From assembly GCA_021831785.1 (NCBI GenBank), contig JAKBMB010000029.1, positions 87,065 through 151,064 on the forward strand: 64,000 bases of DNA, in the 5' to 3' direction. Position 1 is the first letter of the stretch. Each line of letters begins with the position of its first letter. The notes under the pieces were generated by a model, which was given only the letters and a program-made list of their open reading frames with translations, was not told the DNA's origin and searched no databases. A program made the translations under genes and the position numbers. Below, piece by piece: positions 24,690-55,820 of this stretch. The DNA is from Deltaproteobacteria bacterium (lineage in GTDB: Bacteria > Desulfobacterota > Binatia > Binatales > Binataceae).

Positions 24690-25547
24690 ATGCTTGTCGG
24701 GCGCATGACGGTGTGCGGCGTGGGTCTTGTGGGAGGCTCGCTGGCCCTGGCCGTTCGCAAGTCCGGGTTGGCGCGGGAGGTCGTGGGGTTCGACCGGGAA
24801 CGGAGCAACCTTGACTTCGCGCTAAGCCACGGCCTGATAAGCCGCGCTGCCGACTCGCCCGCCGCGGCCGCGCAAGGCGCCGAACTCGTGGTGCTGGCGA
24901 CGCCGGTGCTGGCGATGCCTAAGGTGCTCGCGGCGATGGCAGCGCATCTGCCGGACGGCGCGGTGGTGAGCGATACGGGCAGCGTCAAGGCCTGGGTGGC
25001 GCGCAAGCTTGCCCCGCTCTTGCGCGGCGGGATGGCGCTGGTGCCGGCCCATCCGATCGCCGGCAAAGAGCTTGGCGGGCCGGCCGCGGCGGAGGCGTCC
25101 TTGTTCGCGGGCCGGCGCGTGATCATCACCCCGTGCGCGCGCACCAGCGCCGACGGCCTACGGGTGGTCGAAGCGGTGTACCGCTCCTTGGGCGCCGCAG
25201 TTGAGATGATGGACGCGCAAACTCATGACGAGCTTTTGGCGCACGCGAGCCATCTGCCGCAGATCGCCGCGACCGCGCTCGCGCTCGCCCTGGGTCCGGC
25301 GCGGGTGGGCGATAAAGCCGCCTTCGAGTACGGCGCGAGCGGCCTTCGCGATATGACCCGGCTGGCGCTCTCGCAGCCCGAGCTTTGGCGTGACGTCTGC
25401 CTGACCAATCGCGAGCCGCTCTTGCGGGCGCTCGCGCTGTATCGCGAGGCCCTCGACGAGATGCAGCAGCTTATCGAGCAAGGCGACGCGCCGGGCCTCG
25501 CGGCGGCTTTGGCCCGCGGCCGCCGGATGCGCGAGCAACTCAAATGA
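24690..25547 (+). CDS. tyrA: Prephenate/arogenate dehydrogenase
   Basis: Rossmann fold VCGVGLVGGSLALAVRKSG and the TyrA core (SDTGSVKAWVA...VPAHPIAGKE). Lies among pheA, hisC and cmk. Confidence 0.85.
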   Translation: MLVGRMTVCGVGLVGGSLALAVRKSGLAREVVGFDRERSNLDFALSHGLISRAADSPAAAAQGAELVVLATPVLAMPKVLAAMAAHLPDGAVVSDTGSVKAWVARKLAPLLRGGMALVPAHPIAGKELGGPAAAEASLFAGRRVIITPCARTSADGLRVVEAVYRSLGAAVEMMDAQTHDELLAHASHLPQIAATALALALGPARVGDKAAFEYGASGLRDMTRLALSQPELWRDVCLTNREPLLRALALYREALDEMQQLIEQGDAPGLAAALARGRRMREQLK

Positions 25548-26233
25548 GCACCGAGTCGGCGGTTATCGCGATTGACGGACCTGCGGCCGCGGGCAAATCA
25601 ACCGTCGCGCGGGAGCTCGCGCGCGAGCTCGGCTTCAACTATGTGAATACGGGCGCGATGTACCGCGCGGTGGCCGTCGCCGTGCGCGAGGCCGGGATGG
25701 AGTCCTACGGCGGCGGTGATTTCCTCGAGCGGCTCAAAGCGCTGCTGGCCGCGGCGGATATCGGCGTGGCGGCCGGCCGGGTGACGCTCAACGGGCGCGA
25801 CCTGGGCGAGTCGCTGAACGCGCGCGGCATCGACGACCTGGCTTCGCGGTTGTCCGCACTTGCTCCGGTGCGAGAAAAAATGCGCGCGATGCAGCGGCGG
25901 ATCGCCGTGGACGGAGCGGTGGTGATGGAAGGCCGCGACGTCGGCACCGTGATTTTTCCCGAGGCGCGGTTCAAGTTTTTCCTCGACGCGCAGCCGGAGG
26001 TCAGGGCGCAGCGCCGATTTGCCCAGTTGGCGGCGGCCGGGGCCAAGACCACTCTGGGCGAAGTGTTGCAGCAGTTAGTGGAGCGCGACCAGCGTGACTC
26101 AAGCCGCGAAATCGCGCCGCTTAAGCCCGCGCCCGACGCCATCGTAATCGACTCGAGCGCGCTGTCGGTGAAGGCCGTGGTCGGGCGGATGAAGGCGTTT
26201 GTCGCCGAGGGCAAAAAGGACCGCGGGTCTTGA
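25544..26233 (+). CDS. cmk: Cytidylate kinase
   Basis: IAIDGPAAAGKSTVARELARELGFNYVNTGAMYRAVA. cmk-rpsA synteny. Confidence 0.9.
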   Translation: MSTESAVIAIDGPAAAGKSTVARELARELGFNYVNTGAMYRAVAVAVREAGMESYGGGDFLERLKALLAAADIGVAAGRVTLNGRDLGESLNARGIDDLASRLSALAPVREKMRAMQRRIAVDGAVVMEGRDVGTVIFPEARFKFFLDAQPEVRAQRRFAQLAAAGAKTTLGEVLQQLVERDQRDSSREIAPLKPAPDAIVIDSSALSVKAVVGRMKAFVAEGKKDRGS

Positions 26234-26295
26234 AACTGGCTGCTGCGGCTGTAAGGATTCCAGTTAGCCCAATTTCTGTTTGCAGGTCCCGCTAA

Positions 26296-28041
26296 ATGGA
26301 GAAAGGTTTGTCTAGCGAAGTCCGCGGACAAGAGGATGAGTTTCGTTCACTCCTCGAAAACAGCGTGAACGCGCCGCGGATAGGTGATGTGCTCACCGGT
26401 CGGGTGCTCCAAGTCACCCGCGACCGCGTTATCGTTGATATCGGCTACAAATGCGAGGGTCAAGCGCCCTTGGCGGAGTTTCTCGACGCTGAAGGGAAGG
26501 TGGCGGTCCACGAAGGCGACGAGGTTGACGTCTATTTCGAGAGCGCCGAGACCGACAACGGCACGGTGCTGCTTTCGCGGGCCAAGGCCGAGAAGCTGCG
26601 CGTATGGCGCGAGCTTGAGCGCGCCTATCTCAGCGAGACTCCGGTTGACGGGGTAATCCTCGGGCGCGTCAAGGGCGGGCTCAAGGTGGATATCGGCGTG
26701 CACGCCTTCTTGCCCGGCTCTCATCTGGACGTCCGCCCTACGCGCAATCTAGACCGTTTCGTCGGCCAGCACGGGCGCTTCCAGATCCTCAAGTTCAACC
26801 GCTCGCGGGGCAACGTCGTGGTTTCGCGCCGTCGCGTGTTGGAGCGCGAACTCTCTTCGCTCAAAGAGCAAACGCTAAAGCTTCTCGACGAGGGCGTCAT
26901 TTTCGAGGGCACGGTGAAAAACATCACCGACTACGGCGCTTTCGTCGACTTAGGCGGAATCGACGGCTTGCTTCACGTCACCGATATGTCATGGGGCCGC
27001 CTGCAGCATCCCAGCGACGCGCTCAAGGTCGGCGATAAGGTCAAGGTCGTCGTGCTCAAATACGACCCCGAGCGCGAGCGAGTATCGCTCGGGATGAAGC
27101 AGCTCGTACCTGACCCGTGGACCTCCGCGGCCGCGAACTATCCGGTCGGCGCCAGGGTCAAGGGCAAGGTCGTCAGCCTCGCCGAATACGGCGCCTTCGT
27201 CGAATTGGAAAAGGGCGTCGAGGGCCTGATCCATGTCTCGGAGATGAGCTGGACCAAACGGATGGTGCACCCATCGAAAGTGGTCAACGTGGGGGAAGAG
27301 GTCGAGGTGCAGGTATTGGGGGTTGACGAGGCGAATCGGCGCATTTCCTTGGGCCTTAAACAGGTAGAGGCGAATCCTTGGGAAAAGCTGTCCGAGACCC
27401 ACCCCGTAGGCAGCAGGGTCAAAGGAAAGATCAGGTCGATTACCGATTTCGGCGTCTTCGTCGAGATCGAGCCCGGAATCGACGGACTGGTTCACATCTC
27501 GGACCTGTCCTGGACCCGCAAGGTCAAGCATCCGTCGGAGCTGTGGAAGAAGGGCGATCAGGTCGAAGCGGTGGTGCTCGGCATCGATGTGGCGAACGAA
27601 AGGATCAGCCTCGGCATCAAGCAGCTCGCCGCCGATCCCTGGGAGACGATCGCCCAGCATTATCCGTTGAACACCAAGGTCAAGGGCAAGGTGAGTTCGG
27701 TCGCGGACTTCGGCGTTTTCGTCGCCCTGGAGGAAGGCGTCGAGGGTCTGATCCACGTCTCTCAGCTCAGCTCGAATCGAGTGGACAAGCCGTCTTCGCT
27801 ATTCAAGGTCGGGGATGAAGTCGAAGCGCTGGTCATACAGGCCGACCCCAAGGAGCGGCGCCTGGGGCTCTCGATTCGCGCGCTCAGGCAGCATGAGGAG
27901 CGCGAGGAGATGCACGCTTACATGAAGCGCGAGCACGAGGGCGCGCGTTTTTCCCTGGAGGACATCCTCAACGAGGAGCTGCGCCTGGACCGCGATGAGG
28001 GCGGACGCAAGAGCTCACGGGCGGCCAAGGACCGCGACTGA
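26296..28041 (+). CDS. rpsA: 30S ribosomal protein S1
   Basis: 581 aa with six repeated S1 domains (GxVxxITDFGAFVxL...GLxHxSE motifs). Confidence 0.9.
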   Translation: MEKGLSSEVRGQEDEFRSLLENSVNAPRIGDVLTGRVLQVTRDRVIVDIGYKCEGQAPLAEFLDAEGKVAVHEGDEVDVYFESAETDNGTVLLSRAKAEKLRVWRELERAYLSETPVDGVILGRVKGGLKVDIGVHAFLPGSHLDVRPTRNLDRFVGQHGRFQILKFNRSRGNVVVSRRRVLERELSSLKEQTLKLLDEGVIFEGTVKNITDYGAFVDLGGIDGLLHVTDMSWGRLQHPSDALKVGDKVKVVVLKYDPERERVSLGMKQLVPDPWTSAAANYPVGARVKGKVVSLAEYGAFVELEKGVEGLIHVSEMSWTKRMVHPSKVVNVGEEVEVQVLGVDEANRRISLGLKQVEANPWEKLSETHPVGSRVKGKIRSITDFGVFVEIEPGIDGLVHISDLSWTRKVKHPSELWKKGDQVEAVVLGIDVANERISLGIKQLAADPWETIAQHYPLNTKVKGKVSSVADFGVFVALEEGVEGLIHVSQLSSNRVDKPSSLFKVGDEVEALVIQADPKERRLGLSIRALRQHEEREEMHAYMKREHEGARFSLEDILNEELRLDRDEGGRKSSRAAKDRD

Positions 28042-28077
28042 CCCAAGCGCCGGGGCCAGGTCACGTGGGGAGCCGCG

Positions 28078-28383
28078 ATGACAAAAAGAGGGATTGTCGG
28101 CGAGCTGCTGGGGCGGCGGTCCACGCTATCCCATCGGCAAGCCGAGTCGGTCGTGAACGCTGTTTTCGAGGCGATTGCCGCCGCCCTCGCCGAAGGCGCG
28201 AGAGTGGAGATTCGCAGTTTTGGAGCTTTCGGCGTGAAGCAGCGCAGGCCGCGTCAGGGACGCAATCCGAGGACCGGCGAGCTGGTCGAAGTTAGGGCCA
28301 AACGGGTGCCATTCTTTCGCGCGGGAGAGGAGCTGCGGGGGGAAGTTAACGGGCGCGCCGGGCGTAGCGTTGCCAAATCCTGA
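28078..28383 (+). CDS. ihfB: Integration host factor beta / HU-family DNA-binding protein
   Basis: 101 aa: SVVNAVFEAIAAALAEGARVEIRSFGAFGVKQRRPRQGRNPRTGELVEVRAKRVPFFRAG is the HU/IHF fold signature. rpsA-ihfB synteny. Confidence 0.85.
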   Translation: MTKRGIVGELLGRRSTLSHRQAESVVNAVFEAIAAALAEGARVEIRSFGAFGVKQRRPRQGRNPRTGELVEVRAKRVPFFRAGEELRGEVNGRAGRSVAKS

Positions 28384-28912
28384 GCGGACGCCGACGAACC
28401 TGGAGAAGCTCTGGGCGCCTTGGCGCGCCGCGTATATTTCCTCTTCCTGGCGCGCCGCCCGCGCCTGCATTTTCTGCGTAGGGCGCCTAAGCGCAAATCG
28501 GCGCCGGCGCAAGCTCGTGCTCTACGCGGGACCCGCCGCGGTGGTGATGCTTAATCGCTACCCCTATAATAATGGACACATGATGGTGGCGCCGCGCCGG
28601 CACCTGCCCTCGTTGGAGGCGCTCGACGAGCGCGAGCGGAGCGCGTTGAACGAGCTGCTGTGCGACTCGGTCGCGATCTTACGGCGCGCGCTCAAGCCGT
28701 CAGGCTTCAACCTCGGAGCGAATGTCGGACGCGTGGCCGGAGCGGGCTTCCCCGGTCACTTCCACTGGCACATCGTGCCGCGCTGGGACGGCGACACGAA
28801 TTTTATGCCGACGCTGGCGGCGACGAAAGTTATCTCGCAGCATCTGGAAGCCAGCTTCGATCTGCTGAGTCCGTTGTTCGAGGCGCTGGCGACCGGCGCG
28901 GCGAAAAAGTGA
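28370..28912 (+). CDS. HIT-family (histidine triad) nucleotide hydrolase/transferase
   Basis: Histidine triad HFHWHIVPR and NNGHMMVAPRRH. TTG start overlaps the ihfB 3' end by 14 nt. Confidence 0.75.
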   Translation: MPNPERTPTNLEKLWAPWRAAYISSSWRAARACIFCVGRLSANRRRRKLVLYAGPAAVVMLNRYPYNNGHMMVAPRRHLPSLEALDERERSALNELLCDSVAILRRALKPSGFNLGANVGRVAGAGFPGHFHWHIVPRWDGDTNFMPTLAATKVISQHLEASFDLLSPLFEALATGAAKK

Positions 28913-28936: not shown

Positions 28937-30346
28937 ATGGACCAAAGCTTACTGTCGATTCGCACCCTGGGCGAACTGCGGCGCGCCGGATACGAGACCA
29001 GCGCGGTGCGCGTGGAGATGCGCGACAATCTCGTCGGGAAGCTGCGCCGAGGCGAGGCGCTCTTGCCGGGTATAATCGGTTACGACGATACGGTGTTGCG
29101 CGAGATCGAGAACGGGATTTTAGCCGGCCATCACATGATATTCCTAGGGCAACGCGGACAGGCCAAATCCCGCGTCATCCGCCTTCTGCCAAGTTTGCTC
29201 GACGAATTCGTCCCGGTCGTTCAAGGCTGCGAGCTGAACGACAATCCCTATGCGCCCATTTGCCGGCGCTGCCGGAGCATGCTGGCCGAGCAAGGCGACG
29301 GCCTGCCGATCACGTGGCTCGGGCGCGAACATCGATACGCCGAAAAGCTCGCCACGCCCGACGTTTCGGTCGCGGACCTGATTGGCGAGGTCGACCCCAT
29401 CAAGGTCGCCGAGGGCCGCTACCTTGCCGACGAAGAGACGATTCATTATGGGCTCATTCCGCGCGCCAACCGCGGCATCTTCGCCATCAACGAACTCCCC
29501 GACTTGGTCGAAAAAGTCCAGGTGGGGTTATTCAACTTGATGGAAGAGCGCGACGTCCAGATCAAGGGCTATAAGGTCCGGCTTCCGCTCGACGTCGTTT
29601 TCGTGGCCAGCGCCAACCCGGAGGACTATACCTCGCGCGGGCGCATCATCACGCCCTTGAAGGACCGCTTCGACCTCCAGATTCGCACTCACTACCCGCG
29701 CACTCTGGCGGACGAGATCGCGATCATGGAGCAGGAGGCGATGCGCCTGCCGCGCGCGGACGCGCAGGTCATCGTGCCGCCGTTCATGAAGGAGATAATT
29801 GCTCAGCTCACGTTCGAGGCGCGCGCCTGCAGCGAGATCAACCATTCCTCCGGCGTCTCGGTGCGTGTCACGATAAACAACTACGAATCGGTGATCGCCA
29901 ACGCCGAGAGGCGCGCGACTCGCAACCGAGAAAGCGAGATCGCGCCGCGTCCTTCCGACCTGTACTCGGCTTATGCTTCGACCGCCGGCAAGCTGGAGCT
30001 TGAGTATCCGGCCGACGGCCGCAACGAGGAGGAGCTCATCGAGCGGCTCTTAAACCGCGCGGTGACCAAGGTTTTCGATCGCTATCTCAAAGTCGAAGCC
30101 TTGAAACCCGTGCTGACCTACTTTCAACCGGGCCGCGGAGTCGAGGTGTCCGACGAGGTGCCGGCCGCCGACTATTTGGAGCCCTTGCGCGAAATCAAGG
30201 GCTTGCGCGAAGCAGTGGGCGCGCTCAAGCCCGGGGAAAGTCCAGGGCTGATCGCCGCCGCGGTCGAGCTCGTGCTCGAGGGGCTGCATCTGCACAAAAA
30301 GCTCAACAAAGAGCGCCGCAACGGTCGTTTCGCTTACCGCGCTTGA
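28937..30346 (+). CDS. ChlI/BchI-like (Mg-chelatase-related) AAA+ ATPase
   Basis: Walker A-like FLGQRGQAKSRVIRLLPSLL, sensor/arginine-finger region VFVASANPEDYTSRGRIITPLKDRFDLQI (matches the ChlI NPEEG...LLDRF block), and a C-terminal helical lid. Confidence 0.75.
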   Translation: MDQSLLSIRTLGELRRAGYETSAVRVEMRDNLVGKLRRGEALLPGIIGYDDTVLREIENGILAGHHMIFLGQRGQAKSRVIRLLPSLLDEFVPVVQGCELNDNPYAPICRRCRSMLAEQGDGLPITWLGREHRYAEKLATPDVSVADLIGEVDPIKVAEGRYLADEETIHYGLIPRANRGIFAINELPDLVEKVQVGLFNLMEERDVQIKGYKVRLPLDVVFVASANPEDYTSRGRIITPLKDRFDLQIRTHYPRTLADEIAIMEQEAMRLPRADAQVIVPPFMKEIIAQLTFEARACSEINHSSGVSVRVTINNYESVIANAERRATRNRESEIAPRPSDLYSAYASTAGKLELEYPADGRNEEELIERLLNRAVTKVFDRYLKVEALKPVLTYFQPGRGVEVSDEVPAADYLEPLREIKGLREAVGALKPGESPGLIAAAVELVLEGLHLHKKLNKERRNGRFAYRA

Positions 30347-30447
30347 GACCAAGCGGCCGCGTTCCGGTCGGGCAGTCCGGCGAATGATAGCCACGCGGCC
30401 GATGGCGTCGGCTCTGACCGGCTGAAACGGAGAATCCGAGCCTGGCG

Positions 30448-32040
30448 ATGCTGATACGGTACACGCAATGGAACGGGTCCCGGCAGGCTCGAGTAGATGC
30501 GGAAACGATCCTCGAGCGCCTGGCCGAGCAACTCTACCAAAGCGGCGGCGTAAGCGAGGCGCTGGATTCGATGACTCGCCAGGGCGTCGAACTGAAGGAC
30601 GGCCGCCGGCTGGCGGGCGTGGATGCGCTGCTCAAAGAGGTGCGCCACCAGATGCGCCGCCGCCAGCGCGACTTCAATCTCAAGCATTCGCTGGCCGACA
30701 TCGAGCGAGACCTAGAGCGGATACTGGAGAACGAGCGCGGCGCGCTCGAAGCGAAGGCCGGGCAAGCGTCGGAACCAGGGGCGCAAGGGCGACGCCTTGA
30801 ACGGCCTGCACGACGTTTGTCCGAGGCAATTGGGCAGCTTGAAGGCCGTCAGTTCGAAGACAAGCAGGCAGCGGGCGATTTCGAGGCGCTGCTCGAAGAG
30901 CGCGACAATGTCCGCGACCTGGAAAATTTCCGCGACCGATTCGCCCGGGTGTTTCAGGGCGCTAAAAGTCTCGGCTATCGGGAATCGGTCGAGATGATGC
31001 GCGAAATGGAGCACTTGGAGCGCGTCGAGGCCGCGCTTGGCGCGGGCGATTTCGACGCCGTCTCGCCCGAGGAGTTGGCCGAGCTTCTCGGCCAGCAGGC
31101 GGGCGCCGGTCTGCAAGACCTGCGCGATATGCAGGCTGAGCTCGAGCAGGCCGGCTATCTGGTCGAGAAAGAAGGCGTTGCGCGATTGTCGCCCAAGGGA
31201 GCGCGGCGAATCGGCGAGCTCGCGCTGCGCGATATCTACCGAAAGCTGCTCAAAGACCGCGCCGGGGCACATCTTACGCGCTGGCGCGGAGCTGCCGAAA
31301 CCATGGGGCAGCTGGGCCGACCGTACGTCTTCGGAGAGCCGCTTAACCTCGATCTGGTGTCGACGCTTAAGCAGGCGCTCAGCCGCAGCGCGCGCCTGCC
31401 GCTCAAGCTTGCAGCGGAAGACTTCCGCGTCTTCGAGAGCGACTACGCCACGTCCTGCGCCACGGTATTGTGCTTGGACATGTCATGGTCGATGAGCTGG
31501 GAAGGAAGGTTCGCCGCGGCGAAGAAAGTGGCGATGGCGCTGGAGACGCTGATTCGCACGCGCTACCCCAGAGACTTTTTCGGGCTGGTCGGGTTTTTTA
31601 CCCGCGCGCTGGAGCTCAAGCCCAAAGAGCTGCCCGAGGTCTCCTGGAACATCGGCGACCCATTCACCAATCTTCAGCACGCCCTGCGCGTGGCCACGGC
31701 GATTCTCGGCCGCCACGCGACGAAGAATCGGCATATCGTGGTGGTAACCGACGGACAGCCGACGGCCTATTTTCGCGACGGCCGCCTGTACTGCGAATGG
31801 CCGCTGTCATTCGGCGGCGTCAGCGCCCGCGCGGCGCAAGAGACGCTCGCCGAGGTCGAGCGCGTCACGCGCAAGGGGATAACGATCAATACCTTCATGT
31901 TGGACGACTCGCCGAGCTTGCGCGGCTTTGTCGAGAAGATCGCGAGGATTAACCGCGGGCGCGCGCTTTTCACCCGACCCGACCGTTTGGGCGAGTACGT
32001 TCTGGTCGATTATGTGGATAAAAGAGACCGGCGCATCTGA
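30448..32040 (+). CDS. von Willebrand factor A (MIDAS) domain protein with long acidic/coiled-coil N-terminal region; partner of the ChlI-like ATPase
   Basis: C-terminal VWA with the DxSxS MIDAS motif (VLCLDMSWSMSW) and VVTDGQPT. The N-terminal 300 aa are E/R-rich and helical. Confidence 0.75.
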   Translation: MLIRYTQWNGSRQARVDAETILERLAEQLYQSGGVSEALDSMTRQGVELKDGRRLAGVDALLKEVRHQMRRRQRDFNLKHSLADIERDLERILENERGALEAKAGQASEPGAQGRRLERPARRLSEAIGQLEGRQFEDKQAAGDFEALLEERDNVRDLENFRDRFARVFQGAKSLGYRESVEMMREMEHLERVEAALGAGDFDAVSPEELAELLGQQAGAGLQDLRDMQAELEQAGYLVEKEGVARLSPKGARRIGELALRDIYRKLLKDRAGAHLTRWRGAAETMGQLGRPYVFGEPLNLDLVSTLKQALSRSARLPLKLAAEDFRVFESDYATSCATVLCLDMSWSMSWEGRFAAAKKVAMALETLIRTRYPRDFFGLVGFFTRALELKPKELPEVSWNIGDPFTNLQHALRVATAILGRHATKNRHIVVVTDGQPTAYFRDGRLYCEWPLSFGGVSARAAQETLAEVERVTRKGITINTFMLDDSPSLRGFVEKIARINRGRALFTRPDRLGEYVLVDYVDKRDRRI

Positions 32041-32163
32041 GGTCCAGCGCGGCGCGTGGACGATGCTCGGCTGATCTTCGCGGTTCGCGCTTGGGCTTGC
32101 GCCGGACGTTCCCCATCTTGTGCGAGGCCGTCGATGAGCGATTCGACGCCGCGCGACGACTGC

Positions 32164-33945
32164 CTAGCGGGCCTTGAACGCTCTTCGCGCGCGGCTCAGT
32201 TGCTGCATGACCTCGCCTGGCACGGTGCCTCCGAGCCGGGCGAGAAACTGATGCTGGCCTTCCAGTTCCACCTCCCACTCGCGCGCATCGATGGCCGTGG
32301 CGCGCTTAAGATGCTCATCGGTGATGTCGAGGCCGTCGAGCGCGACCTCCCCGGCGCGCGGCACCAGACCCACGGGCGTTTGTTCAGCGCCGGCGCGATG
32401 GTTGGCACGCTTGATAATCCAGTCGAGCACGCGCATGTTCTCACCGTAGCCAGGCCACAAAAACGAGCCGTCGGCGTCTTTCCTGAACCAGTTGACCATG
32501 AAAATCTTCGGCGGGCGCGGTATTTTGCGGCCCATCGCCAGCCAATGGGCGAAGTACTGCCCCATGTCGTAGCCGCAGAAGGGCAGCATCGCCATCGGAT
32601 CGCGCCGTATCACGCCGACCTTGCCGGTGGCGGCCGCGGTCGTCTCCGAACCCATCGTCGCGCCAAGGTAAACGCCGTGGCTCCAGTCAAAGGCCTCGAG
32701 CACAAGCGGGACTGTGGAAGCGCGCCGACCGCCGAAAATAATGGCCGAGATGGGCACCCCCTGCGGGTCCTCGGCATGCGGCGACAGCGCGGGATTATTG
32801 CTCATGGGCGTGGTGAAGCGGCTGTTCGGGTGCGCTGCTTTGGCTCCGGAGGCGGCGTTCCACGGCCGGCCCTGCCAGTCGAGCGTGCCGGACGGGGGCT
32901 CGACGCCGATGCCTTCCCACCATATGTCGCCGTCGGGTGTGAGCGCGACGTTGGTGAAGATCGTATCGTGCTTAAGCATCCGCATGGCGTTGGGATTGGA
33001 GTGCGCGTTGGTCCCCGGGGCGACGCCGAAGTAGCCGAATTCCGGATTTACCGCCCACAGTCTGCCGTCGGCGCCGATGCGCATCCAGGCGATGTCGTCG
33101 CCGACCGTAAAGACGCGCCATCCGTCGAAGGCCGGCGGCGGCGTCAACATCGCCAAATTGGTCTTGCCGCACGCGCTGGGGAACGCGGCCGCGACATACG
33201 TTGTCTCGCCTTGCGGGCTTTGCACGCCGAGGATCAGCATGTGCTCGGCCAGCCACTCTTCCTCTCTGGCCATGTGGCTTGCGATGCGTAGGGCGAAGCA
33301 CTTTTTGCTGAGCAAGGCGTTGCCGCCGTAATTGCTGCCGACCGACCATACCGTATCGTCATGGGGGAAATGGCATATGAGCCTGCGCTGCGGCTCGCAG
33401 CCCAGGGTGCAGTGTAGGCCGCGGTTGAAGTCGCCCGCCGGGCCCAGCATGTCGAGCGCCGGCGCGCCCATCCGCGTCATAATCCCCATGCTGAGGGCGA
33501 CGTAGATGCTGTCGGTGAGCTCGACCCCCGCCTTGGCGAACCGCGAGCCGAGGGGCCCGAGCACGTACGGCACGACGTACATCGCGCCCCCGGCCATCGA
33601 GCCCTCAAGCCACTTCGACAGCTTCTCGTAGGTTTGCTTGGGCTCCGCCCAATTATTCGTCGGTCCGGCTTCGTCTTTGCTCGGCGTGCAGATAAAGGTC
33701 GCATCCTCGGTGCGGGCCACGTCGTTCGGGTTGGAGCGATGCAAGTAGCATCCGGGACGCCGATGGCGCTCAAGCGGCAGCAGCACCTTGGCAGCGACGG
33801 CCTCGGACAAAAGGCGGTCTCGTTCTGCCTCTGACCCATCGCACCAAATCAGGCGGTCCGGCCGCGTCAGACGCGCGATCTCGCCCACCCATTGCGCCAG
33901 AGATTGGTTTTCCGCTCCAGCCGTTTTGTTGGGTAGACTAACCAT
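32164..33945 (-). CDS. pckG: Phosphoenolpyruvate carboxykinase (GTP)
   Basis: 593 aa. N-terminus LIWCDGSEAE...CYLHRSNPNDVARTEDATFICT and downstream blocks characteristic of GTP-type PEPCK. Confidence 0.85.
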   Translation of the reverse strand: MVSLPNKTAGAENQSLAQWVGEIARLTRPDRLIWCDGSEAERDRLLSEAVAAKVLLPLERHRRPGCYLHRSNPNDVARTEDATFICTPSKDEAGPTNNWAEPKQTYEKLSKWLEGSMAGGAMYVVPYVLGPLGSRFAKAGVELTDSIYVALSMGIMTRMGAPALDMLGPAGDFNRGLHCTLGCEPQRRLICHFPHDDTVWSVGSNYGGNALLSKKCFALRIASHMAREEEWLAEHMLILGVQSPQGETTYVAAAFPSACGKTNLAMLTPPPAFDGWRVFTVGDDIAWMRIGADGRLWAVNPEFGYFGVAPGTNAHSNPNAMRMLKHDTIFTNVALTPDGDIWWEGIGVEPPSGTLDWQGRPWNAASGAKAAHPNSRFTTPMSNNPALSPHAEDPQGVPISAIIFGGRRASTVPLVLEAFDWSHGVYLGATMGSETTAAATGKVGVIRRDPMAMLPFCGYDMGQYFAHWLAMGRKIPRPPKIFMVNWFRKDADGSFLWPGYGENMRVLDWIIKRANHRAGAEQTPVGLVPRAGEVALDGLDITDEHLKRATAIDAREWEVELEGQHQFLARLGGTVPGEVMQQLSRARRAFKAR

Positions 33946-41844: not shown

Positions 41845-42087
41845 ATCCCCCTCTCCTTGTCGGGCCGAGAGAATTTCGCCGCTGCGCCTGACCCGGTAAT
41901 AGCGGCCTTCGAATTACTTACCTTGGCCGCGACCGCTCTAGGTTAGCACCAAGGCCGGCAGGCGGCCAATGATGCGCCGTTGAGCGCGCCGGCGTTTGCA
42001 CTCCGCATCAGCGCATGGCCGGGTCGAGCCCGGCGCTGGCCAATGCCAAGCAGTCGAGTACAATCAGACCAAGGGGGTGGCAGCAAG

Positions 42088-43374
42088 ATGATTGTCGAGA
42101 TAGCCTATGGCCGCGGCGTGCTTCCCGTGCGCCTGCCGGAGCGCGCCGAGGTGACGATCATTCGTAAAAAAGCCCTGGCGAAGCTGCCGGATCCTCAGGC
42201 GGCCGTTTGCCGCGCGCTTGACAACCCGATTGGCTCCGCCCCTCTCGCGCAGCTCGTCAGGGGGCGGCGCAGCGCCTGTATTTTGATCTGCGACGTGACG
42301 CGCCCGGCGCCCAACCACCTGCTTTTGCGGCCAATCCTCGATGAGCTGCTTCGAGGCGGGGTGCCGGCCGACAAAATCACCGTGCTCGTGGCCACCGGAC
42401 TTCACCGCCCCAACCTGGGTTCGGAGCTCGAGGAGCTGATCGGCGACCCTTGGGTGCTTTCAACCGTGCGCGTGGCTAATCACACGGCCCGTTGCGACGC
42501 CGACCACGTCGATCTGGGGCGCACCGCGAGCCGCGGCACGCCGGTCAAGATCGACCGCCGCTTCGTGGAGGCCGACCTGCGCATCGCGACCGGCCTGGTC
42601 GAGCCGCACTTTATGGCGGGTTACTCGGGCGGTCCGAAGGTCGTCGCGCCCGGGCTCGCGCATGCCGACACGATCCGCACCTTCCATAGCGCGCGCTTCA
42701 TGGAAGACCCGCGCGCGCGCCAGTGCAATCTCGCGCGCAACCCCCTGCGCGAGGAGCAGCTCGAGATCGTTGGCATGATAGGGGAGATTTACGGCCTCAA
42801 CGTGGTCCTCGACGAATCGCGCGCCCTATGCCAGGTCAGCTTCGGCGACGTCGTCGCGAGCCATCTGGCCGCGGTCGATTTCGTGCGCGACAGCACCGAG
42901 GTAGCCGTGGCGCGCAGGTTCAAGACGGTGGTCACCTCGGCGGCCGGCCATCCGCTGGACAAGACCTACTATCAGACAGTCAAAGGGATGGTTACGCCGA
43001 TGGACGTCCTGGAGCCCGGCGCCAACCTGATCGTCGCGTCGGCATGCTCCGAAGGCCTGGGTTCGGCGGAGTTTCGCGCGGCCCAAAGCCGGCTCCTCGA
43101 GCTCGGAGCCGAAGCGTTTCTTGAGAGCCTCAAACGCAAGGCGCTCGCCGACATCGACGAATGGCAAACCGAGATGCAGCTTAAGCCCATGCGCCGCGCC
43201 CGCATCGCGCTCTACACCCGCGGCTTGAGCGAGGAAGAGCGCCGTCTCACCGCTGTTGACCTTGCCGCCTCGGTCGAGCAGGCTGTCCAACAAAGCCTCG
43301 AGCGCACCGCCGACCGCGCGGTCGCAATTATTCCCGAAGGGCCTTACGTCGTTCCGTTCTACGCGCCCGCGTGA
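42088..43374 (+). CDS. LarA-like protein (nickel-pincer cofactor-dependent lactate racemase family, DUF2088/DUF2089)
   Basis: MIVEIAYGRGVLPVRLPE... The overall architecture and conserved His/Asp blocks (TGLHRPN, HFMAGYSGGPK) resemble LarA. Start taken at the ATG after aggggg (42088). Confidence 0.65.
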   Translation: MIVEIAYGRGVLPVRLPERAEVTIIRKKALAKLPDPQAAVCRALDNPIGSAPLAQLVRGRRSACILICDVTRPAPNHLLLRPILDELLRGGVPADKITVLVATGLHRPNLGSELEELIGDPWVLSTVRVANHTARCDADHVDLGRTASRGTPVKIDRRFVEADLRIATGLVEPHFMAGYSGGPKVVAPGLAHADTIRTFHSARFMEDPRARQCNLARNPLREEQLEIVGMIGEIYGLNVVLDESRALCQVSFGDVVASHLAAVDFVRDSTEVAVARRFKTVVTSAAGHPLDKTYYQTVKGMVTPMDVLEPGANLIVASACSEGLGSAEFRAAQSRLLELGAEAFLESLKRKALADIDEWQTEMQLKPMRRARIALYTRGLSEEERRLTAVDLAASVEQAVQQSLERTADRAVAIIPEGPYVVPFYAPA

Positions 43375-50082: not shown

Positions 50083-50272
50083 CGACGCGCGGTTGCTCGG
50101 CGCTAGGGCACCGAATAAGTGGGAACCTGAGTCGGTCCCGGTGGCAGCACTCGGCACTGACTTGGCCTGATTACGATCAAGCCTTGGGATGGACGCGAGA
50201 TTTGCAGGCGCGTCGCATAGCGCCCAATTGGCCGGCCAGGGGTCATCGTTGGCCAAGTCCTGGTATAGTAGA

Positions 50273-51034
50273 ATGGGTTTGGCGATGGCGCTTTTGCCGA
50301 TCTTCGTAGAGGTTGGCGACCGACCCGTGCTGGTGGTCGGCGGCGGCGCGGTGGCGCTGCGCAAGGTCGAAGGCCTGCGCAAAGCCGGAGCGTCGGTGAC
50401 GGTGATAAGTCCGCGGCTGACGGCCCGGCTCAAGAAGCTCGCGGACCAAGGCGCGCTGCGCCATATCGAGCGCCGTTATCGGCCGGGCGATATGGGCGGC
50501 TTTAGCTTGATTTACGCGGCGACTGACGATGCCGCGCTGGAGCGCAAACTGTTTGCGGAAGCCCAGCGCTTGGGCCTGATGATCAACGTCGCCGGCCAGC
50601 CGGAGCTGTGCAGCTTTATCGTGCCCGCAAGTATCAGGCGCGGCGATTTGCTGGTGGCGATTTCCACCGCCGGCGCGAGCCCGGCCTTAGCGCGCAGGCT
50701 GCGCCAGCAACTCGAGCTTGCCTTGGGTCCGGAGTACGAGGCACTGGTCGATCTGATGGGCCGGGCGCGCAGGCGCTTGCGCGAGAGCTTATGCGACGGT
50801 CGCTCGCGGATGCGCCGGCTCAATGCGCTGGCCGACTCCGAGATCGGCGAATGCCTGCGCCGCCACGACCTCGAGCGAGTTGACCGGCTGCTGGCCGAGC
50901 ATCTGGGGGAAGGATTTGACTTGGCCGCCTTAGGCTTTAGCGCCGAGCGGCTGGACGCCTTGTTTGGCCCGCGGCTCCAGGGCGCAGATCGGCCGGCGGA
51001 ATGCGGAGTTGGCGCCGCGGATGATCGAGCCTAA
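50273..51034 (+). CDS. sirC: Precorrin-2 dehydrogenase / sirohydrochlorin ferrochelatase (SirC/CysG N-terminal domain-like)
   Basis: FVEVGDRPVLVVGGGAVALRKVEGLRKAGASVTVISP Rossmann motif and the CysG-N-like body. Heads the hem cluster. The ORF track starts at 50189. Confidence 0.7.
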   Translation: MGLAMALLPIFVEVGDRPVLVVGGGAVALRKVEGLRKAGASVTVISPRLTARLKKLADQGALRHIERRYRPGDMGGFSLIYAATDDAALERKLFAEAQRLGLMINVAGQPELCSFIVPASIRRGDLLVAISTAGASPALARRLRQQLELALGPEYEALVDLMGRARRRLRESLCDGRSRMRRLNALADSEIGECLRRHDLERVDRLLAEHLGEGFDLAALGFSAERLDALFGPRLQGADRPAECGVGAADDRA

Positions 51035-51036
51035 TT

Positions 51037-51864
51037 ATGATTACGCCTTGGACGCTCGCTGCCTTGCTCGGCTACGTCGCTGCCGCCGGCGCGTTCGCGG
51101 CCGGGCTGTGGTCGCCGCGTGAGCGGTTGACTTCATGGGGCACTACGGCTTTGGCCCTCGGCGCCGGCTTTCAGGCCGTCGATTTGTTTTTGGGGGCGCT
51201 CAAGGCGGGCAATATGCCGGTGGTGAACTTCGCCCAATCGCTGGCTTTCTTGGCCTGGGTCACGGCGCTGGCCGGCCTGGTGACTATCGTGCGCCTGCGG
51301 CTGGTTCTAGTGGGCGCGGTGGTCGCCCCGGCGGTTACCATCGCGCTTGGCGCGGCTTGCCTGGCCGCCGAGAACGGCGACCGTTCCTTTCCCCAGGCGC
51401 TGCGCAGCGCCTGGTTGCCGGTGCATGTGACGCTGGCCTTCCTCGGCCAAGCCCTGTTCGTCCTAGCGGCCGGAGTGAGTCTGCTTTACCTGCTCAAGGA
51501 GTCGCGGCTTAAGGCCAGGCGTCCGTTGGAAATCCCCGACAGTCGGCTGCCGAGTCTGGAGAGTCTCGACCGCATCAATTATCGTCTGCTGGTGTGGGGC
51601 TTTGTTCTGCTCAGCCTTGCAATCGTAACCGGGGCGCTGTGGGCTGCCGCGACTTGGGGCCGGTTTTGGTCATGGGAGCCGGTGGAGTTGTGGTCGTTGG
51701 TCTTATGGGTTCTTTACGCCGCCCTGCTTCAGTCGCGGCTTGCTATCGGGGTTCGCGGGCGGCGCGCCGCACGGCTGACGATCGCGCTGTTCGCGGTTCT
51801 GCTATGTTCGTACCTCGGGGTTAACTTGCTGATCCCCGGCAAGCACGGCGGAAGCTTCGGCTAG
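51037..51864 (+). CDS. hemX: Cytochrome c assembly-like membrane protein (CcsA/HemX family)
   Basis: Polytopic, with a Trp-rich WGRFWSWEPVELWSLVLW motif. Sits between sirC and hemA, as HemX does in hemAXCDBL operons. Confidence 0.7.
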   Translation: MITPWTLAALLGYVAAAGAFAAGLWSPRERLTSWGTTALALGAGFQAVDLFLGALKAGNMPVVNFAQSLAFLAWVTALAGLVTIVRLRLVLVGAVVAPAVTIALGAACLAAENGDRSFPQALRSAWLPVHVTLAFLGQALFVLAAGVSLLYLLKESRLKARRPLEIPDSRLPSLESLDRINYRLLVWGFVLLSLAIVTGALWAAATWGRFWSWEPVELWSLVLWVLYAALLQSRLAIGVRGRRAARLTIALFAVLLCSYLGVNLLIPGKHGGSFG

Positions 51865-51867
51865 CTG

Positions 51868-53214
51868 ATGATTAACGACACCTTGTGCATCATTGGTTTG
51901 AGCCATCACACGGCCCCGGTCGAGGTGCGCGAGCGTCTCGCCTTTAGCCCGCGCGAGGTCGCCGGCGCGCTCGTAAACCTCAAGCGCAGCCGGCCTGCCG
52001 TGAGCGAGGCGGCGTTGCTTTCGACTTGCAACCGGGTCGAGATGGTCGCCGCGACAGCCGATCCGGACCTGGCGCAGGCCGAACTCCTAAGCTTTCTGGC
52101 CGCCGAGCGCAAGCTTGAGCAAAGCGCGCTGCGAAGTCTGCACTACCGGCTTGCCGGACGGGACGCCGTGCGTCATCTTTTCCGCGTCGGTGCGAGCCTG
52201 GACTCGATGGTCGTCGGCGAGCCGCAGATTCTGGGCCAGCTTAAGGCCGCCTATGCGCAGGCGGTTGAGGCCGGCGTCGTCGGCCTGATTCTTCATCGCG
52301 CCTTTCACAAGACCTTCTCGGTGGCCAAGCTGGTGCGCAAAAGCACCGCGATCGGCGCCGGCGCGGTCTCGGTCAGCGCCGCGGCGGTGAAGCTGGCCCG
52401 CCAGATCTTCGATTCGCTCCAGGACAAGACGATCATGCTGCTCGGGGCCGGTCGGATGGCGGAGTTGACCGCGCGCAATCTGGCGCGTCTGGGGGTCGAG
52501 TCGCTGGTCATCGCCAACCGCCGCTTGGAGCGCGCGATGGAGCTGGCGCGTGATCTCGGCGGCACCGCAGTGACGCTCGAACATTGCACGCCCTATCTCA
52601 AGCTCGCCGACGTGGTGATCGGTTCGGCGGCGGTCAGCGAACCGATCCTGACGCCGGCCGAGCTTTACCCGGTGATGCGCGAGCGGCTGCACCGGCCGAT
52701 GTTCCTCATCGACCTCGGCGTCCCGCGCAACTTTCACCGTGGTCTCAACGAGCTGGAGAACGTCTTTCTCTACGACATCGACGACTTGGGCCGCGTCGCC
52801 GCCGAGGCACTCAACGAGCGTGAGCAGGAGGCGCATCGGGCCGAGCTTATCGTCGAGCGCGAGGTGGACGCGTTCTGCCGCTGGCTGGAACGGCTGGAGC
52901 TGGTGCCCGCAATCAAGGCGGTTCGCTCGCGCATCGAGCTTCTGCGCGACGGTGAGTTAGAGCGCCACCGCGCCTGGCTGGCTACGCTGGCACCGCAGGA
53001 GCGCGCACATGTAGAAGCGCTGACCCGCGGCCTGACCAACAAGATTCTCCATCAAATTCTGAGCGAGCTGCGCCGTCTTGGCCAGGAGCCCGACAAGCGG
53101 TTCGCGCTGGTGATCGCGCAGCGCCTGTTGGGCGCCAGTCTCGCGCCCGCCGCGGCCGCGCTGATCGCGCCCGCGGCGGGCGACGACGAGGGCGGCGGCG
53201 AGCCGCAGAGCTGA
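51868..53214 (+). CDS. hemA: Glutamyl-tRNA reductase
   Basis: IIGLSHHTAPVEVRERLAF, the catalytic Cys in STCNR, and the NADPH-binding domain. Confidence 0.9.
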   Translation: MINDTLCIIGLSHHTAPVEVRERLAFSPREVAGALVNLKRSRPAVSEAALLSTCNRVEMVAATADPDLAQAELLSFLAAERKLEQSALRSLHYRLAGRDAVRHLFRVGASLDSMVVGEPQILGQLKAAYAQAVEAGVVGLILHRAFHKTFSVAKLVRKSTAIGAGAVSVSAAAVKLARQIFDSLQDKTIMLLGAGRMAELTARNLARLGVESLVIANRRLERAMELARDLGGTAVTLEHCTPYLKLADVVIGSAAVSEPILTPAELYPVMRERLHRPMFLIDLGVPRNFHRGLNELENVFLYDIDDLGRVAAEALNEREQEAHRAELIVEREVDAFCRWLERLELVPAIKAVRSRIELLRDGELERHRAWLATLAPQERAHVEALTRGLTNKILHQILSELRRLGQEPDKRFALVIAQRLLGASLAPAAAALIAPAAGDDEGGGEPQS

Positions 53215-53241
53215 GTCGTCGGCAGCGCAGGGACAGGCCGT

Positions 53242-55726: not shown

Positions 55727-55820
55727 TGCGCCGCATCCGATGGCGCAACTTCCTCGTCGGCCGAATCGTTATATAATATATAATCAGTTGCAGAATTCGG
55801 CTCGCGCGCGAGGTGAACCC

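Follow-up and report, generated by a model that had tools for sequence, protein, structure and literature searches.

Two adjacent genes lie on the plus strand of the window (the whole 64-kb stretch of DNA analyzed here), the first encoding a 469-aa AAA+ ATPase and the second a 530-aa protein with a VWA domain and its MIDAS, and both ORFs are found exactly where the first-pass annotation of this DNA had placed them (Table 1). The exact sequences of both proteins are present in public assemblies, and homologues number in the thousands for either protein (lowest E-values, about 1e-280), which establishes the two ORFs as real genes. Upstream, the Pfam matches bear out the neighbors cmk, rpsA, ihfB, and HIT that had been named at first pass. 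The gaps from cmk through HIT to the ATPase gene are 62, 36, -14, and 24 bp, and the whole run from cmk to the VWA gene is carried by one strand with gaps of -14 to 101 bp. No terminator-like site was found between the genes of this plus-strand run, the sole ones lying inside the HIT coding region. From this arrangement, it is plausible that the pair is cotranscribed with cmk-rpsA-ihfB-HIT as a single unit, the downstream end of which is marked by a convergent PEP carboxykinase gene. The flanking genes are housekeeping genes, and the composition is uniform at ~64% GC. In 10 Binatia-type loci (L004-L013), the pair likewise comes after rpsA-ihfB. Among 80 loci compared, the linkage to cmk-rpsA-ihfB-HIT is restricted to Binatia and thus constitutes weak evidence about function.

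Table 1. Features of the AAA+/VWA locus and its flanks (positions are those of the window; residues are numbered within each protein)
Feature	Position	Strand	Basis or detail
Upstream co-directional block cmk-rpsA-ihfB-HIT	25544..28912	+	
cmk	25544-26233	+	Pfam
rpsA	26296-28041	+	Pfam
ihfB	28078-28383	+	Pfam
HIT-family gene	28370-28912	+	Pfam
AAA+ ATPase gene, 469 aa	28937..30346	+	ORF and translation, Pfam/NCBIfam matches, PDB relatives
Walker A (P-loop), G71-Q-R-G-Q-A-K77-S78	29147..29170	+	Aligned with ChlI GDRGTGKS
Cysteine triad C98, C109, C112	29228..29272	+	Insert after P-loop helix
Walker B, I-F-A-I-N185-E186	29477..29494	+	N185 aligned with ChlI Walker B Asp
Sensor 1 N227 (SANPEDY) to arginine finger R244 (PLKDRF)	29615..29668	+	
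Candidate sensor 2 R310, motif SGVSVR	29864..29866	+	Lid region; S308 and R310 in 80/80
ATPase C-terminal domain, ~residues 340-469	29954..30343	+	Family-specific, absent from ChlI
VWA/MIDAS partner gene, 530 aa	30448..32040	+	ORF and translation, Rv0959_3rd and VWA_2 matches
N-terminal peptide R-Y-x-x-W8-[DN]-G	30457..30483	+	Predicted unstructured, pLDDT <50
Helical, highly charged middle region, residues 18-234	30499..31149	+	pLDDT mostly 80-92
Beta-hairpin and helix with L-[ST]-P-[KR]-G-x-R-x-I-G	31153..31260	+	R253, G256, A259 conserved
VWA (integrin I-like) domain, residues 337-529	31456..32034	+	
MIDAS D344-M-S346-W-S348	31477..31491	+	Completed by T407 and D435
MIDAS T407	31666-31668	+	
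MIDAS D435	31750-31752	+	
GTP-dependent PEP carboxykinase gene, convergent	32164..33945	-	Pfam PEPCK_N, PEPCK_GTP

Residue conservation in the ATPase was assessed on 80 sequences from several phyla. The Walker A motif follows the family consensus GxRGQ[AG]K[ST], and G71, R73, G74, Q75, and K77 are invariant (80/80), as are N227, D230, Y231, D243, and R244 in the segment from sensor 1 to the arginine finger, which aligns with GNPEE and LLDRFG of ChlI. The Walker B motif departs from the canonical hhhhDE of ChlI/BchI in 80/80 sequences: N185 stands for the canonical Asp while the catalytic Glu (E186) is retained, each of the two being found in all 80, so that ATP turnover could be slow or regulated. 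R310 is a candidate sensor 2 from its position. The cysteine triad, invariant in 39 Binataceae sequences and present across phyla in just 26 to 30 of the 80, may represent a clade-specific metal or redox site. The C-terminal domain (~340-469), for which Pfam gave no match, is helical with a beta-hairpin at its end and is conserved at G351, K352, E354, L447, and L450. Residues 371-460 are modeled with a pLDDT of 81-93, the rest of the ATPase model being too poor for structural statements (mean pLDDT of 63, core below 50).

The first-pass annotation had described the ATPase as ChlI-like, and the HMM classification that it had put forward as a check places the protein in the same way, with a match to Pfam Mg_chelatase at 31.4 bits (cut-off, 20.3) and weaker ones to AAA_5, Sigma54_activat, AAA_3, and MCM, the AAA_3 (MoxR) score of 18.7 bits being under the Pfam gathering cut-off of 27. 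Among solved structures, its best relatives are ChlI (8osf; E = 8.5e-9) and then BchI (1g8p). Moreover, the family profile searched against the PDB reaches ChlI at 6e-15 and archaeal LonB at 8e-11, and MoxR proteins are absent from its matches at E<=0.01; hence, the ATPase is closer to ChlI/BchI than to MoxR. It nevertheless lies far under every chelatase family cut-off, with NCBIfam scores of 42.1 bits for BchI-ChlI (TIGR02030; equivalog cut-off, 466.95), 33.9 for BchD-ChlD (499.55), and 38.1 for Cob-chelat-sub (779.45). In public records, the proteins of the pair bear the product name "magnesium chelatase subunit I," and RefSeq names the ATPase "sigma 54-interacting transcriptional regulator."

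In the partner, the VWA domain is recognized by the Pfam VWA model above its cut-off and by its VWA fold. The MIDAS, of which the DxSxS motif had been reported as intact, is present as the full set of DxSxS, T, and D, and metal binding is predicted; D344, S346, S348, T407, and D435 are all invariant in 55/55 partners. The partner also lacks an AAA domain, as had been noted, since residues 1-335 are predicted to be nearly all helical, forming helical bundles in the structure model, and gave no P-loop or AAA match. In contrast, the earlier description of this N-terminal region as an acidic coiled coil was overstated, since the region is not strongly acidic: 34% of its residues are charged for a net charge of -4, residues 111-235 alone being acidic (net charge, -11) and residues 236-335 being basic. 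The length of the middle region depends on the lineage, with ~130 more residues in Actinomycetota and Chloroflexota and almost none left in Planctomycetota. W8 was found without exception in the 55 partners compared (55/55), the planctomycete form of ~380 aa among them, and the peptide around it may serve for docking on the ATPase. The conserved hairpin-helix element could possibly close a winged-helix-like module; in long-form homologues, the corresponding region gave weak HemN_C matches (1.8e-5 and 6.7e-4). Regarding chelatase-type models, the partner weakly matches TIGR02442 ("putative cobaltochelatase," ChlD-like; 25.7 bits for a cut-off of 779.45), with no match to TIGR02031 (ChlD/BchD) at E<=0.01 and none to CobT-specific Pfam models or to VWA_CoxE.

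The pair is a member of a catalogued and widespread bacterial family and not a new type of system. Pfam PF27098 (Rv0959_3rd) is recorded on the exact VWA protein of the window (E<=1e-5, three contigs) and on 120/120 VWA homologues among the matches listed; the N-terminal family PF27532 is recorded on 119/120 homologues among the matches listed and is unrecorded on the exact window protein. In SEED, the partner family is named [quoted passage not shown] Tsukamurella tyrosinosolvens (Mycobacteriales) carries an adjacent AAA+/VWA pair beside purN-purH, and both proteins align with those of the window: the ATPases are 47% identical end to end (residues 10-467, 459 residues; E = 4e-130), and the partners are 31% identical over 371 residues (E = 6e-42). 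Based on the Pfam model name, on this Mycobacteriales locus, and on the Mycobacterium tuberculosis gene order around Rv0958/Rv0959, which we take to match the purN-purH-adjacent pair, the family is very probably that of Mycobacterium Rv0958/Rv0959. Compared with Rv0958/Rv0959 (MSMEG_5512/MSMEG_5511), the two-gene arrangement and the length of the ATPase (about 460-470 aa) are the same, whereas the window partner is a short form and the Rv0959-like actinobacterial form reaches ~670 aa through a ~130-residue insert in the helical region. The genomic context also differs, with rpsA-ihfB-HIT in the window and purN-purH in Mycobacteriales.

Gene neighborhoods were compared in 80 ATPase loci from several phyla with 10-kb flanks. 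The VWA partner occurs in 59 of them; pairing is therefore conserved across phyla, and the lack of such conservation, which the first-pass annotation had envisaged as a refutation, is not what we observed. The gap between the two genes is at most 120 bp in 33 of the 56 cases with a VWA gene downstream on the same strand. Among the 21 partner-less loci, the downstream sequence is shorter than 2 kb in 6, which is too little to tell, and ~15 with at least 3 kb downstream have an ATPase gene but no VWA partner (Dehalococcoidia/Tepidiformaceae, Dormibacterota, and a few Actinomycetota), indicating that pairing is not obligatory in cis. The family is large (717 clusters at 50% identity for E<=1e-30) and under strong purifying selection, the ATPase being 51-74% identical across phyla within the 80 loci. 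Also in line with the earlier view that no client is encoded nearby, no third gene recurs across phyla in the 80 loci, and no recurrent chelatase H/N subunit, defense signature, or effector was found near the pair. Neighbors vary with the lineage, e.g., sdhCAB and WhiB in Acidimicrobiia, purN-purH in Mycobacteriales, and a small P-loop protein in Chloroflexota. The first-pass annotation had called the pair uncharacterized, and our literature search found no functional study of it; reports on family members are omics-only, and no complex, ATPase activity, or client is described there. Altogether, the pair belongs not to a well-characterized subfamily with a known client but to the Rv0959_3rd/SEED family, which is listed in databases (Pfam, SEED) and is not known to have a client.

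The kinship of the ATPase with ChlI/BchI, its best sequence relatives, could suggest a genuine class I tetrapyrrole chelatase (Mg, Co, or Ni) driven by ATP, to which the pair would contribute subunits I and D and of which the large, porphyrin-binding H/N subunit would be encoded elsewhere. Walker A, sensor 1, and the arginine finger share the same layout in ChlI/BchI and in the window ATPase, and ChlD/BchD and the window partner both have a C-terminal VWA domain with MIDAS preceded by a charged region. The weak match of the partner VWA region to the ChlD-like TIGR02442, the public chelatase naming, and a tetrapyrrole cluster in the window (positions 50189-56795; hemA, hemC, cobA-hemD, hemB, and a SirC-like gene) point in the same direction, as does a Mycobacterium marinum transposon insertion 49 bp upstream of the orthologue among B12-resistant mutants (PMC11237697). 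We nonetheless consider a chelatase unlikely. The NCBIfam equivalog cut-offs exceed the scores obtained by an order of magnitude, the partner is devoid of the AAA-like N-terminal half defining ChlD/BchD, and the ATPase differs from ChlI by ~40 extra N-terminal residues, an extra C-terminal domain of ~130 residues, and a Walker B Asn in place of Asp. Moreover, the ChlI/ChlD system uses a ChlH-type subunit, whereas none lies near the pair and no ChlH- or CobN-like ORF occurs in the 64-kb window, the largest ORFs of which encode a 921-aa secretin and a 790-aa BamA-like protein. No tetrapyrrole gene recurs beside the pair in the 80 loci, and the tetrapyrrole cluster of the window is 18 kb off with unrelated genes between. 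The position of the pair at the end of the co-directional cmk-rpsA-ihfB-HIT-AAA-VWA run in Binatia could suggest a remodeller with a housekeeping role in transcription or translation, with the ribosome, ribosomal protein S1, RNA polymerase, or a nucleoid protein as candidate clients. In eukaryotic ribosome assembly, midasin/Rea1 strips factors from pre-ribosomes by means of an AAA+ motor joined through a charged linker to a MIDAS domain, and such a remodeller would be its miniature analogue in split form; if true, the pair would be the bacterial split counterpart of midasin/Rea1, with its client in the core gene-expression machinery. The very high sequence conservation, typical of core functions, agrees with this, and Mycobacterium smegmatis MSMEG_5512 copurified with cross-linked RNA polymerase complexes, although the tagged protein brought down no DNA (PMC7092591). 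However, the rpsA/ihfB linkage is missing outside Binatia, and the family, with just four matches in the plasmid collection, is absent from the majority of well-studied bacteria, a poor fit with a universal core role. In addition, midasin/Rea1 is one giant polypeptide with six fused AAA modules, whereas the window pair is split and resembles it in the generic VWA fold only, and the ribosome link comes solely from the Binatia gene order and one pull-down dataset. A core remodeller of this kind therefore seems to us quite improbable.

Two further readings fare worse. AAA+/VWA pairs occur in conflict systems (PMC7159879), and the window ATPase weakly matches bpMoxR (16.7 bits; cut-off, 27), a model also matched by 5 of 17 family members at E<=0.01. 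A MoxR-VWA conflict or anti-phage defense module, or cargo of a mobile element, is nevertheless very improbable and close to refuted. Neither protein matched any PADLOC model (E<=0.01), the ATPase is found in no phage record, and its only four matches in the plasmid collection are all on large actinobacterial or Thermomicrobium replicons, non-mobilizable and of 0.4-11.8 Mb. The housekeeping flanks and uniform GC content of the locus, the lack of any recurring effector or third component, and a family profile reaching no MoxR protein in the PDB also argue against defense. As for the sigma-54-dependent transcriptional activator implied by the RefSeq name, Sigma54_activat does match the ATPase (21.4 bits; cut-off, 20.2) and, weakly, 17/17 tested family members. 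This identity is effectively refuted: Sigma54_activat aligns with no more than 60 residues (169-228) around Walker B, the ATPase sequence lacks the sigma-54-contacting GAFTGA loop, and Pfam matched no C-terminal DNA-binding HTH. Furthermore, the profile search gives 6e-15 for ChlI/BchI versus 2e-3 to 4e-3 for sigma-54 activators, and the family abounds in Actinomycetota, a phylum that lacks sigma-54 to our knowledge.

Our analysis demonstrates the domain identity of the two proteins, the conservation of their catalytic and MIDAS residues, their adjacency across phyla, and the absence of a recurrent third gene. The best reading is that the pair serves a chromosomal housekeeping function and is not a tetrapyrrole chelatase, a sigma-54 activator, or a defense system. 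We propose that it is probably a conserved two-part motor-adaptor machine for protein remodelling, of the Rv0958/Rv0959 family, with a client encoded elsewhere. This proposal is supported by the invariance of K77, E186, N227, R244, and R310 in 80/80 sequences from many phyla and by the hexameric motors ChlI/BchI being the closest solved relatives of the ATPase. In the proposed mechanism, the 469-aa protein would assemble into a ring and act as an AAA+ motor of a ChlI/BchI-related clade, and the 530-aa protein would be the adaptor in physical contact with this ring, probably docking through the invariant N-terminal Trp peptide or through a VWA loop. The Mg2+-loaded MIDAS of the adaptor would grip an acidic residue on the client, which ATP hydrolysis would then pull or reshape, resulting, for instance, in insertion or release of a metal or cofactor or in disassembly of a complex. 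The client, whose nature we can only infer, would have its gene elsewhere in the genome. By analogy, the working mode of this motor-adaptor machine may be likened to that of ChlI-ChlD, CobS-CobT, NorQ-NorD, and CbbQ-CbbO.

These analogous systems differ from the pair in several respects. The likeness to CobS-CobT lies in a separate AAA+ motor and a separate VWA adaptor with its own N-terminal region. However, CobS is a MoxR-type ATPase, a class that the family profile of the window ATPase does not reach in the PDB, and CobS-CobT works with CobN, which is found neither in the window nor in the 80 loci. In the CobS-CobT-CobN system, the CobT adaptor plugs into the CobS ring by inserting a shaft and holds the client on the opposite face (bioRxiv 10.64898/2026.07.21.739949). 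The logic of NorQ-NorD, CbbQ-CbbO, RavA-ViaA, and CoxD-CoxE is the same, with the VWA/MIDAS gene coming after the ATPase gene. NorQ, CbbQ, RavA, and CoxD belong to MoxR pairs, whereas the window ATPase is not MoxR (AAA_3, 18.7 versus 27), and the VWA_CoxE model, under which ViaA and CoxE fall, is unmatched by the window partner. MoxR-VWA pairs also adjoin their clients (nor, cbb, cox), unlike the window pair. Surface carboxylates mediate the action of such pairs on their specific client (PMC9976466, PMC4660213). For NorQ-NorD, a finger of the VWA protein reaches into the pore of the ring, and the surface carboxylates of the client are required (PMC9976466); a mechanism has likewise been published for the analogous pair CbbQ-CbbO (PMC4660213). 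Also in favor of the proposed machine, both proteins of the pair are expressed in M. smegmatis and are found jointly in the ClpC1 interactome (PMC10433963).

As shown in this study, the two adjacent plus-strand ORFs reported by the first-pass annotation lie exactly where it placed them, 101 bp apart, and make up a pair of the short form, set in a Binatia-specific context, from a family that is catalogued yet uncharacterised. The exact sequences of both proteins are already deposited in public metagenome assemblies, and each has thousands of homologues, the closest of both being found in Candidatus Binataceae/Binatia MAGs, which places the window within this group. We are highly confident that this is the family of the Mycobacterium ATPase Rv0958 and VWA protein Rv0959. 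Precomputed Pfam annotation assigns PF27098 'Rv0959_3rd' to the exact window VWA protein, and one homologue is named 'FIG019045: long form Mg-chelase associated protein with vWA domain' in SEED. Tsukamurella (Mycobacteriales) carries an adjacent pair a few genes downstream of purN-purH; along its full length, the window ATPase shares 47% identity with its counterpart there (E=4e-130), and the window partner shares 31% across 371 residues (E=6e-42). Rv0958/Rv0959 of M. tuberculosis occupy the same place relative to purN-purH, and we infer that the Tsukamurella-type pair corresponds to Rv0958/Rv0959 themselves; the family is very probably present in M. tuberculosis. About 3 kb downstream of the Tsukamurella pair lie rpmB, rpmG, rpsN, rpsR and a GTP-binding protein gene, a cluster which we take to resemble the zinc-independent alternative ribosomal protein set and whose closeness to the pair is probably coincidental.

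Coordinates of the features discussed (window positions unless a locus or residues are named)
Feature	Location	Strand	Details
AAA+ ATPase gene	28937-30346	+	469-aa ORF
VWA partner gene	30448-32040	+	530-aa ORF
HIT gene	28370-28912	+	start TTG 28370; overlaps ihfB by 14 nt
Terminator-like hairpins	28414-28465		within HIT coding sequence
Walker B of ATPase	29477-29494		residues 181-186; hhhhNE instead of hhhhDE
Cysteine triad of ATPase	29228-29272		C98, C109, C112 (residues 98-112); insert after P-loop helix
Partner N-terminal peptide			invariant W8; disordered (AlphaFold2 model)
Partner helical regions	residues 18-104, 124-234		AlphaFold2 model
Partner beta-hairpin + helix			bears conserved L-[ST]-P-[KR]-G-x-R-x-I-G (AlphaFold2 model)
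Partner disordered loop	residues 269-289		AlphaFold2 model
Partner VWA domain	residues 337-529		AlphaFold2 model
Tetrapyrrole/sirohaem cluster	50189-56795	+	SirC-like precorrin-2 dehydrogenase, CcsA/HemX-like, hemA, hemC, cobA-hemD fusion, hemB
411-aa ORF	32056-33291	+	most likely a shadow ORF
LarA-like gene	41980-43374	+	10 kb downstream of the pair
T. roseum P-loop protein gene	L085 6054-6962	same as ATPase	27-bp gap to ATPase gene
Short partner gene, Planctomycetota	L082 11450-12598		382 aa
Tsukamurella ribosomal protein cluster	L084 13288-14224	-	with GTP-binding protein gene

The description of the ATPase as ChlI-type holds, with the precision that it constitutes a distinct family next to ChlI/BchI, given its NCBIfam scores, the order of its PDB relatives and the absence of MoxR proteins among them. 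Its Pfam matches are weak and overlap several related AAA+ families, with Mg_chelatase (31.4 bits) ahead of AAA_5, Sigma54_activat, AAA_3, bpMoxR and MCM, and it misses the chelatase equivalog cut-offs by an order of magnitude (BchI-ChlI, 42.1 versus 466.95). ChlI and BchI are its nearest PDB relatives in a single-sequence search (8osf, E=8.5e-9), and a family profile built from 17 diverse members ranked ChlI (6e-15) before BchI (1.7e-12), archaeal LonB (8e-11) and sigma-54 activators (~2e-3), matching no MoxR protein in the PDB. Across 80 sequences from many phyla, the P-loop G71-x-R-G-Q-[AG]-K77-[ST], the Walker B glutamate E186, the sensor 1 residue N227, the arginine finger R244 and R310, a candidate sensor 2, are invariant, as is Asp189, three residues past the Walker B glutamate. 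Where ChlI has the Walker B aspartate, the family has an asparagine (Asn185, 80/80); compared with ChlI, it also has ~40 additional N-terminal residues and an additional C-terminal domain of ~130 residues that matches nothing in Pfam. The cysteine triad, invariant in 39 Binataceae sequences and present across phyla in only 26 to 30 of 80, may form a metal or redox site particular to this lineage. The ATPase model that AlphaFold2 computed from 39 closely related sequences was of poor quality (mean pLDDT 63; <50 for residues 135-254) and gave no Foldseek match at E<=0.001.

The partner ends in a VWA domain (Pfam VWA_2, residues 339-437) whose MIDAS is intact, as first proposed, with D344, S346, S348, T407 and D435 all in place and unchanged throughout the full-length partners (55/55). 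Neither Pfam nor the AlphaFold2 model (mean pLDDT 77; 79-sequence input) revealed an AAA-like module in residues 1-335, in agreement with the initial reading. The 'acidic coiled-coil' given to the N-region was overstated, because the region, with 34% charged residues, carries a net charge of just -4 and its acidity is limited to residues 111-235. PDB searches with the single partner sequence and with the family profile returned no significant match. The helical middle varies in length by lineage, from ~200 residues in the window protein to ~330 in the ~670-aa partners of Actinomycetota and Chloroflexota, and is nearly absent in Planctomycetota (partners of ~380 aa), while the W-motif, the VWA domain and most of the conserved pre-VWA segment are kept in all length forms. 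Short partners occur in two Planctomycetota loci (L081, L082) and in an Acidobacteriaceae-labelled MAG (L073, 412 aa); that of L082 retains the N-terminal Trp motif, the end of the pre-VWA segment and the VWA domain, without the helical middle.

At E<=1e-30, the ATPase family comprised 717 clusters in an exhaustive search through representatives clustered at 50% identity. The family, strongly conserved in sequence, occurs in Actinomycetota, Chloroflexota, Binatia, Planctomycetota and Myxococcota; the best 80 of at least 600 matches, one genome per species, further cover Rokubacteria, Dormibacterota and Desulfobacterota, with ATPase identities of 51 to 74%. The pairing is kept in 59 of these 80 loci, with a gap of <=120 bp in 33 of the 56 cases where the VWA gene lies downstream on the same strand. 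Six of the 21 partnerless loci have <2 kb of sequence downstream of the ATPase, leaving about 15 of 80 in which the ATPase stands without a VWA partner; no divergent partner emerged from these 'ATPase-only' loci in an HMM search with a threshold of E<=10, and the large downstream ORFs inspected there did not resemble one. The pattern of conservation shows that selection acts both on ATP hydrolysis and on ligand binding by the MIDAS, and that the ATPase and VWA genes travel as a pair. Drawing on the analogous ChlI-ChlD, CobS-CobT, NorQ-NorD and CbbQ-CbbO (PMC9976466; PMC4660213; bioRxiv 10.64898/2026.07.21.739949), we favour, with moderate confidence, a motor-adaptor pair. We infer that the ATPase would assemble into a ring onto which the partner would dock, possibly through its invariant N-terminal Trp peptide; the MIDAS would then bind a carboxylate of a client protein, and ATP hydrolysis by the ring would remodel this client.

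That the two proteins are tetrapyrrole chelatase subunits appears very unlikely to us. The window does hold a tetrapyrrole/sirohaem cluster, whose CcsA/HemX-like member is a cytochrome-c-assembly protein, but it lies 18 kb from the pair with unrelated genes between. We rated this reading low because the window has no ChlH/CobN-like ORF (its biggest ORFs, of 921 and 790 aa, encode a secretin and a BamA-like protein, respectively), the surroundings of the pair in the 80 loci show no recurrent tetrapyrrole gene, the ATPase fails the equivalog cut-offs and the partner lacks the AAA half; it was rejected on scores and architecture. The names 'magnesium chelatase subunit I' (JGI) and 'sigma 54-interacting transcriptional regulator' both look misleading. 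RefSeq gives the latter, even within Actinomycetota, to the ATPase in Tsukamurella (L084), next to a 'VWA domain-containing protein', and in Thermomicrobium roseum (L085); its basis is a 60-residue match around Walker B, and a sigma-54 role was rejected from the ATPase sequence and Pfam. A defence function was also discarded, as the pair matched no PADLOC model, the ATPase had no match among 50,697 phage records, and 72,556 plasmid records gave it just 4 matches, each to a non-mobilizable replicon (0.4-11.8 Mb).

It also seems very unlikely that the pair remodels the gene-expression machinery in the manner of midasin. The M. smegmatis ATPase MSMEG_5512 co-purified with cross-linked RNA polymerase complexes, and no DNA was pulled down (PMC7092591). 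The ClpC1 interactome includes both MSMEG_5512 and the VWA protein MSMEG_5511 (PMC10433963), the latter being lower in a pafBC mutant (PMC5656591); B12-resistant M. marinum mutants include a transposon insertion upstream of the orthologue (PMC11237697), and Rv0958 is cited as 'magnesium chelatase' on the sole ground of annotation (PMC10774309). As initially stated, the pair is uncharacterised, the literature yielding these omics mentions and no functional study. Characterised AAA+/VWA pairs are each dedicated to the maturation or repair of one important enzyme, namely chlorophyll and B12 chelatases, nitric-oxide reductase and Rubisco (PMC9976466, PMC4660213). The present family is among the larger unstudied ones, and identifying its client would probably expose an unrecognised maturation or repair step for an enzyme or complex of the phyla that carry it.

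In the window, the two genes come last in a co-directional series (accA, pheA, aminotransferase, tyrA, cmk, rpsA, ihfB, HIT, AAA, VWA) bounded downstream by a convergent PEP carboxykinase gene. The suggested co-transcription of the pair with cmk-rpsA-ihfB-HIT is plausible from the short gaps (62, 36, -14, 24 and 101 bp from cmk on) and because the only terminator-like hairpins of the series fall within the HIT gene itself when its conserved N-terminus is counted as coding. The metagenome gene call starts HIT at GTG 28517 (131 aa); we preferred the TTG because of a conserved N-terminus (APWRxxYI...CIFC) and upstream tblastn matches, which begin at residue 8-14 in other Binatia. The order rpsA-ihfB(-HIT)-AAA-VWA occurs in all 10 Binatia-type loci and in no other among the 80. 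When every ORF up to 8 kb from the ATPase was clustered across the 80 loci, the outcome was no recurrent client, in line with the first-pass annotation, and only lineage-specific neighbours, such as cmk-rpsA-ihfB-HIT in Binatia and sdhCAB, WhiB and formiminotransferase in Acidimicrobiia, together with antisense shadow ORFs. Gene order names no client. Altogether, the earlier observation is confirmed and its interpretation supported; the practical value of the window is modest, adding a short-form member from a new context, and it shows that gene neighbourhood by itself will not identify the client.

Several lineage-specific genes accompany the pair. In Chloroflexota/Thermomicrobia, the gene immediately preceding that of the ATPase, in the same orientation, encodes a P-loop protein of ~300 aa (L021, L023, L032, L046, L054, L079, L085), which may be a lineage-specific third component; that of T. 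roseum is called 'type II secretion system protein E' by RefSeq and has no Pfam match at 1e-3. A class III adenylate/guanylate cyclase catalytic-domain gene (~183 aa) lies on the opposite strand between AAA and VWA in five loci labelled Actinomycetota (L027, L045, L052, L056, L061), one of them as Bifidobacterium breve, and GH1-like genes cluster in eight mostly Acidimicrobiia loci, between AAA and VWA in those checked. Both genes are lineage-specific and opposite in strand to the pair, and were set aside. The window contains no Rfam family or tRNA, and neither of the two intergenic regions folds better than its shuffled sequence. The 411-aa ORF downstream of the pair has no Pfam match; it runs antisense over the PEP carboxykinase gene and most likely represents a high-GC shadow ORF rather than a gene. 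Further downstream, and with no link to the pair seen, lies a LarA-like gene, LarA being the lactate racemase family of nickel-pincer cofactor enzymes.
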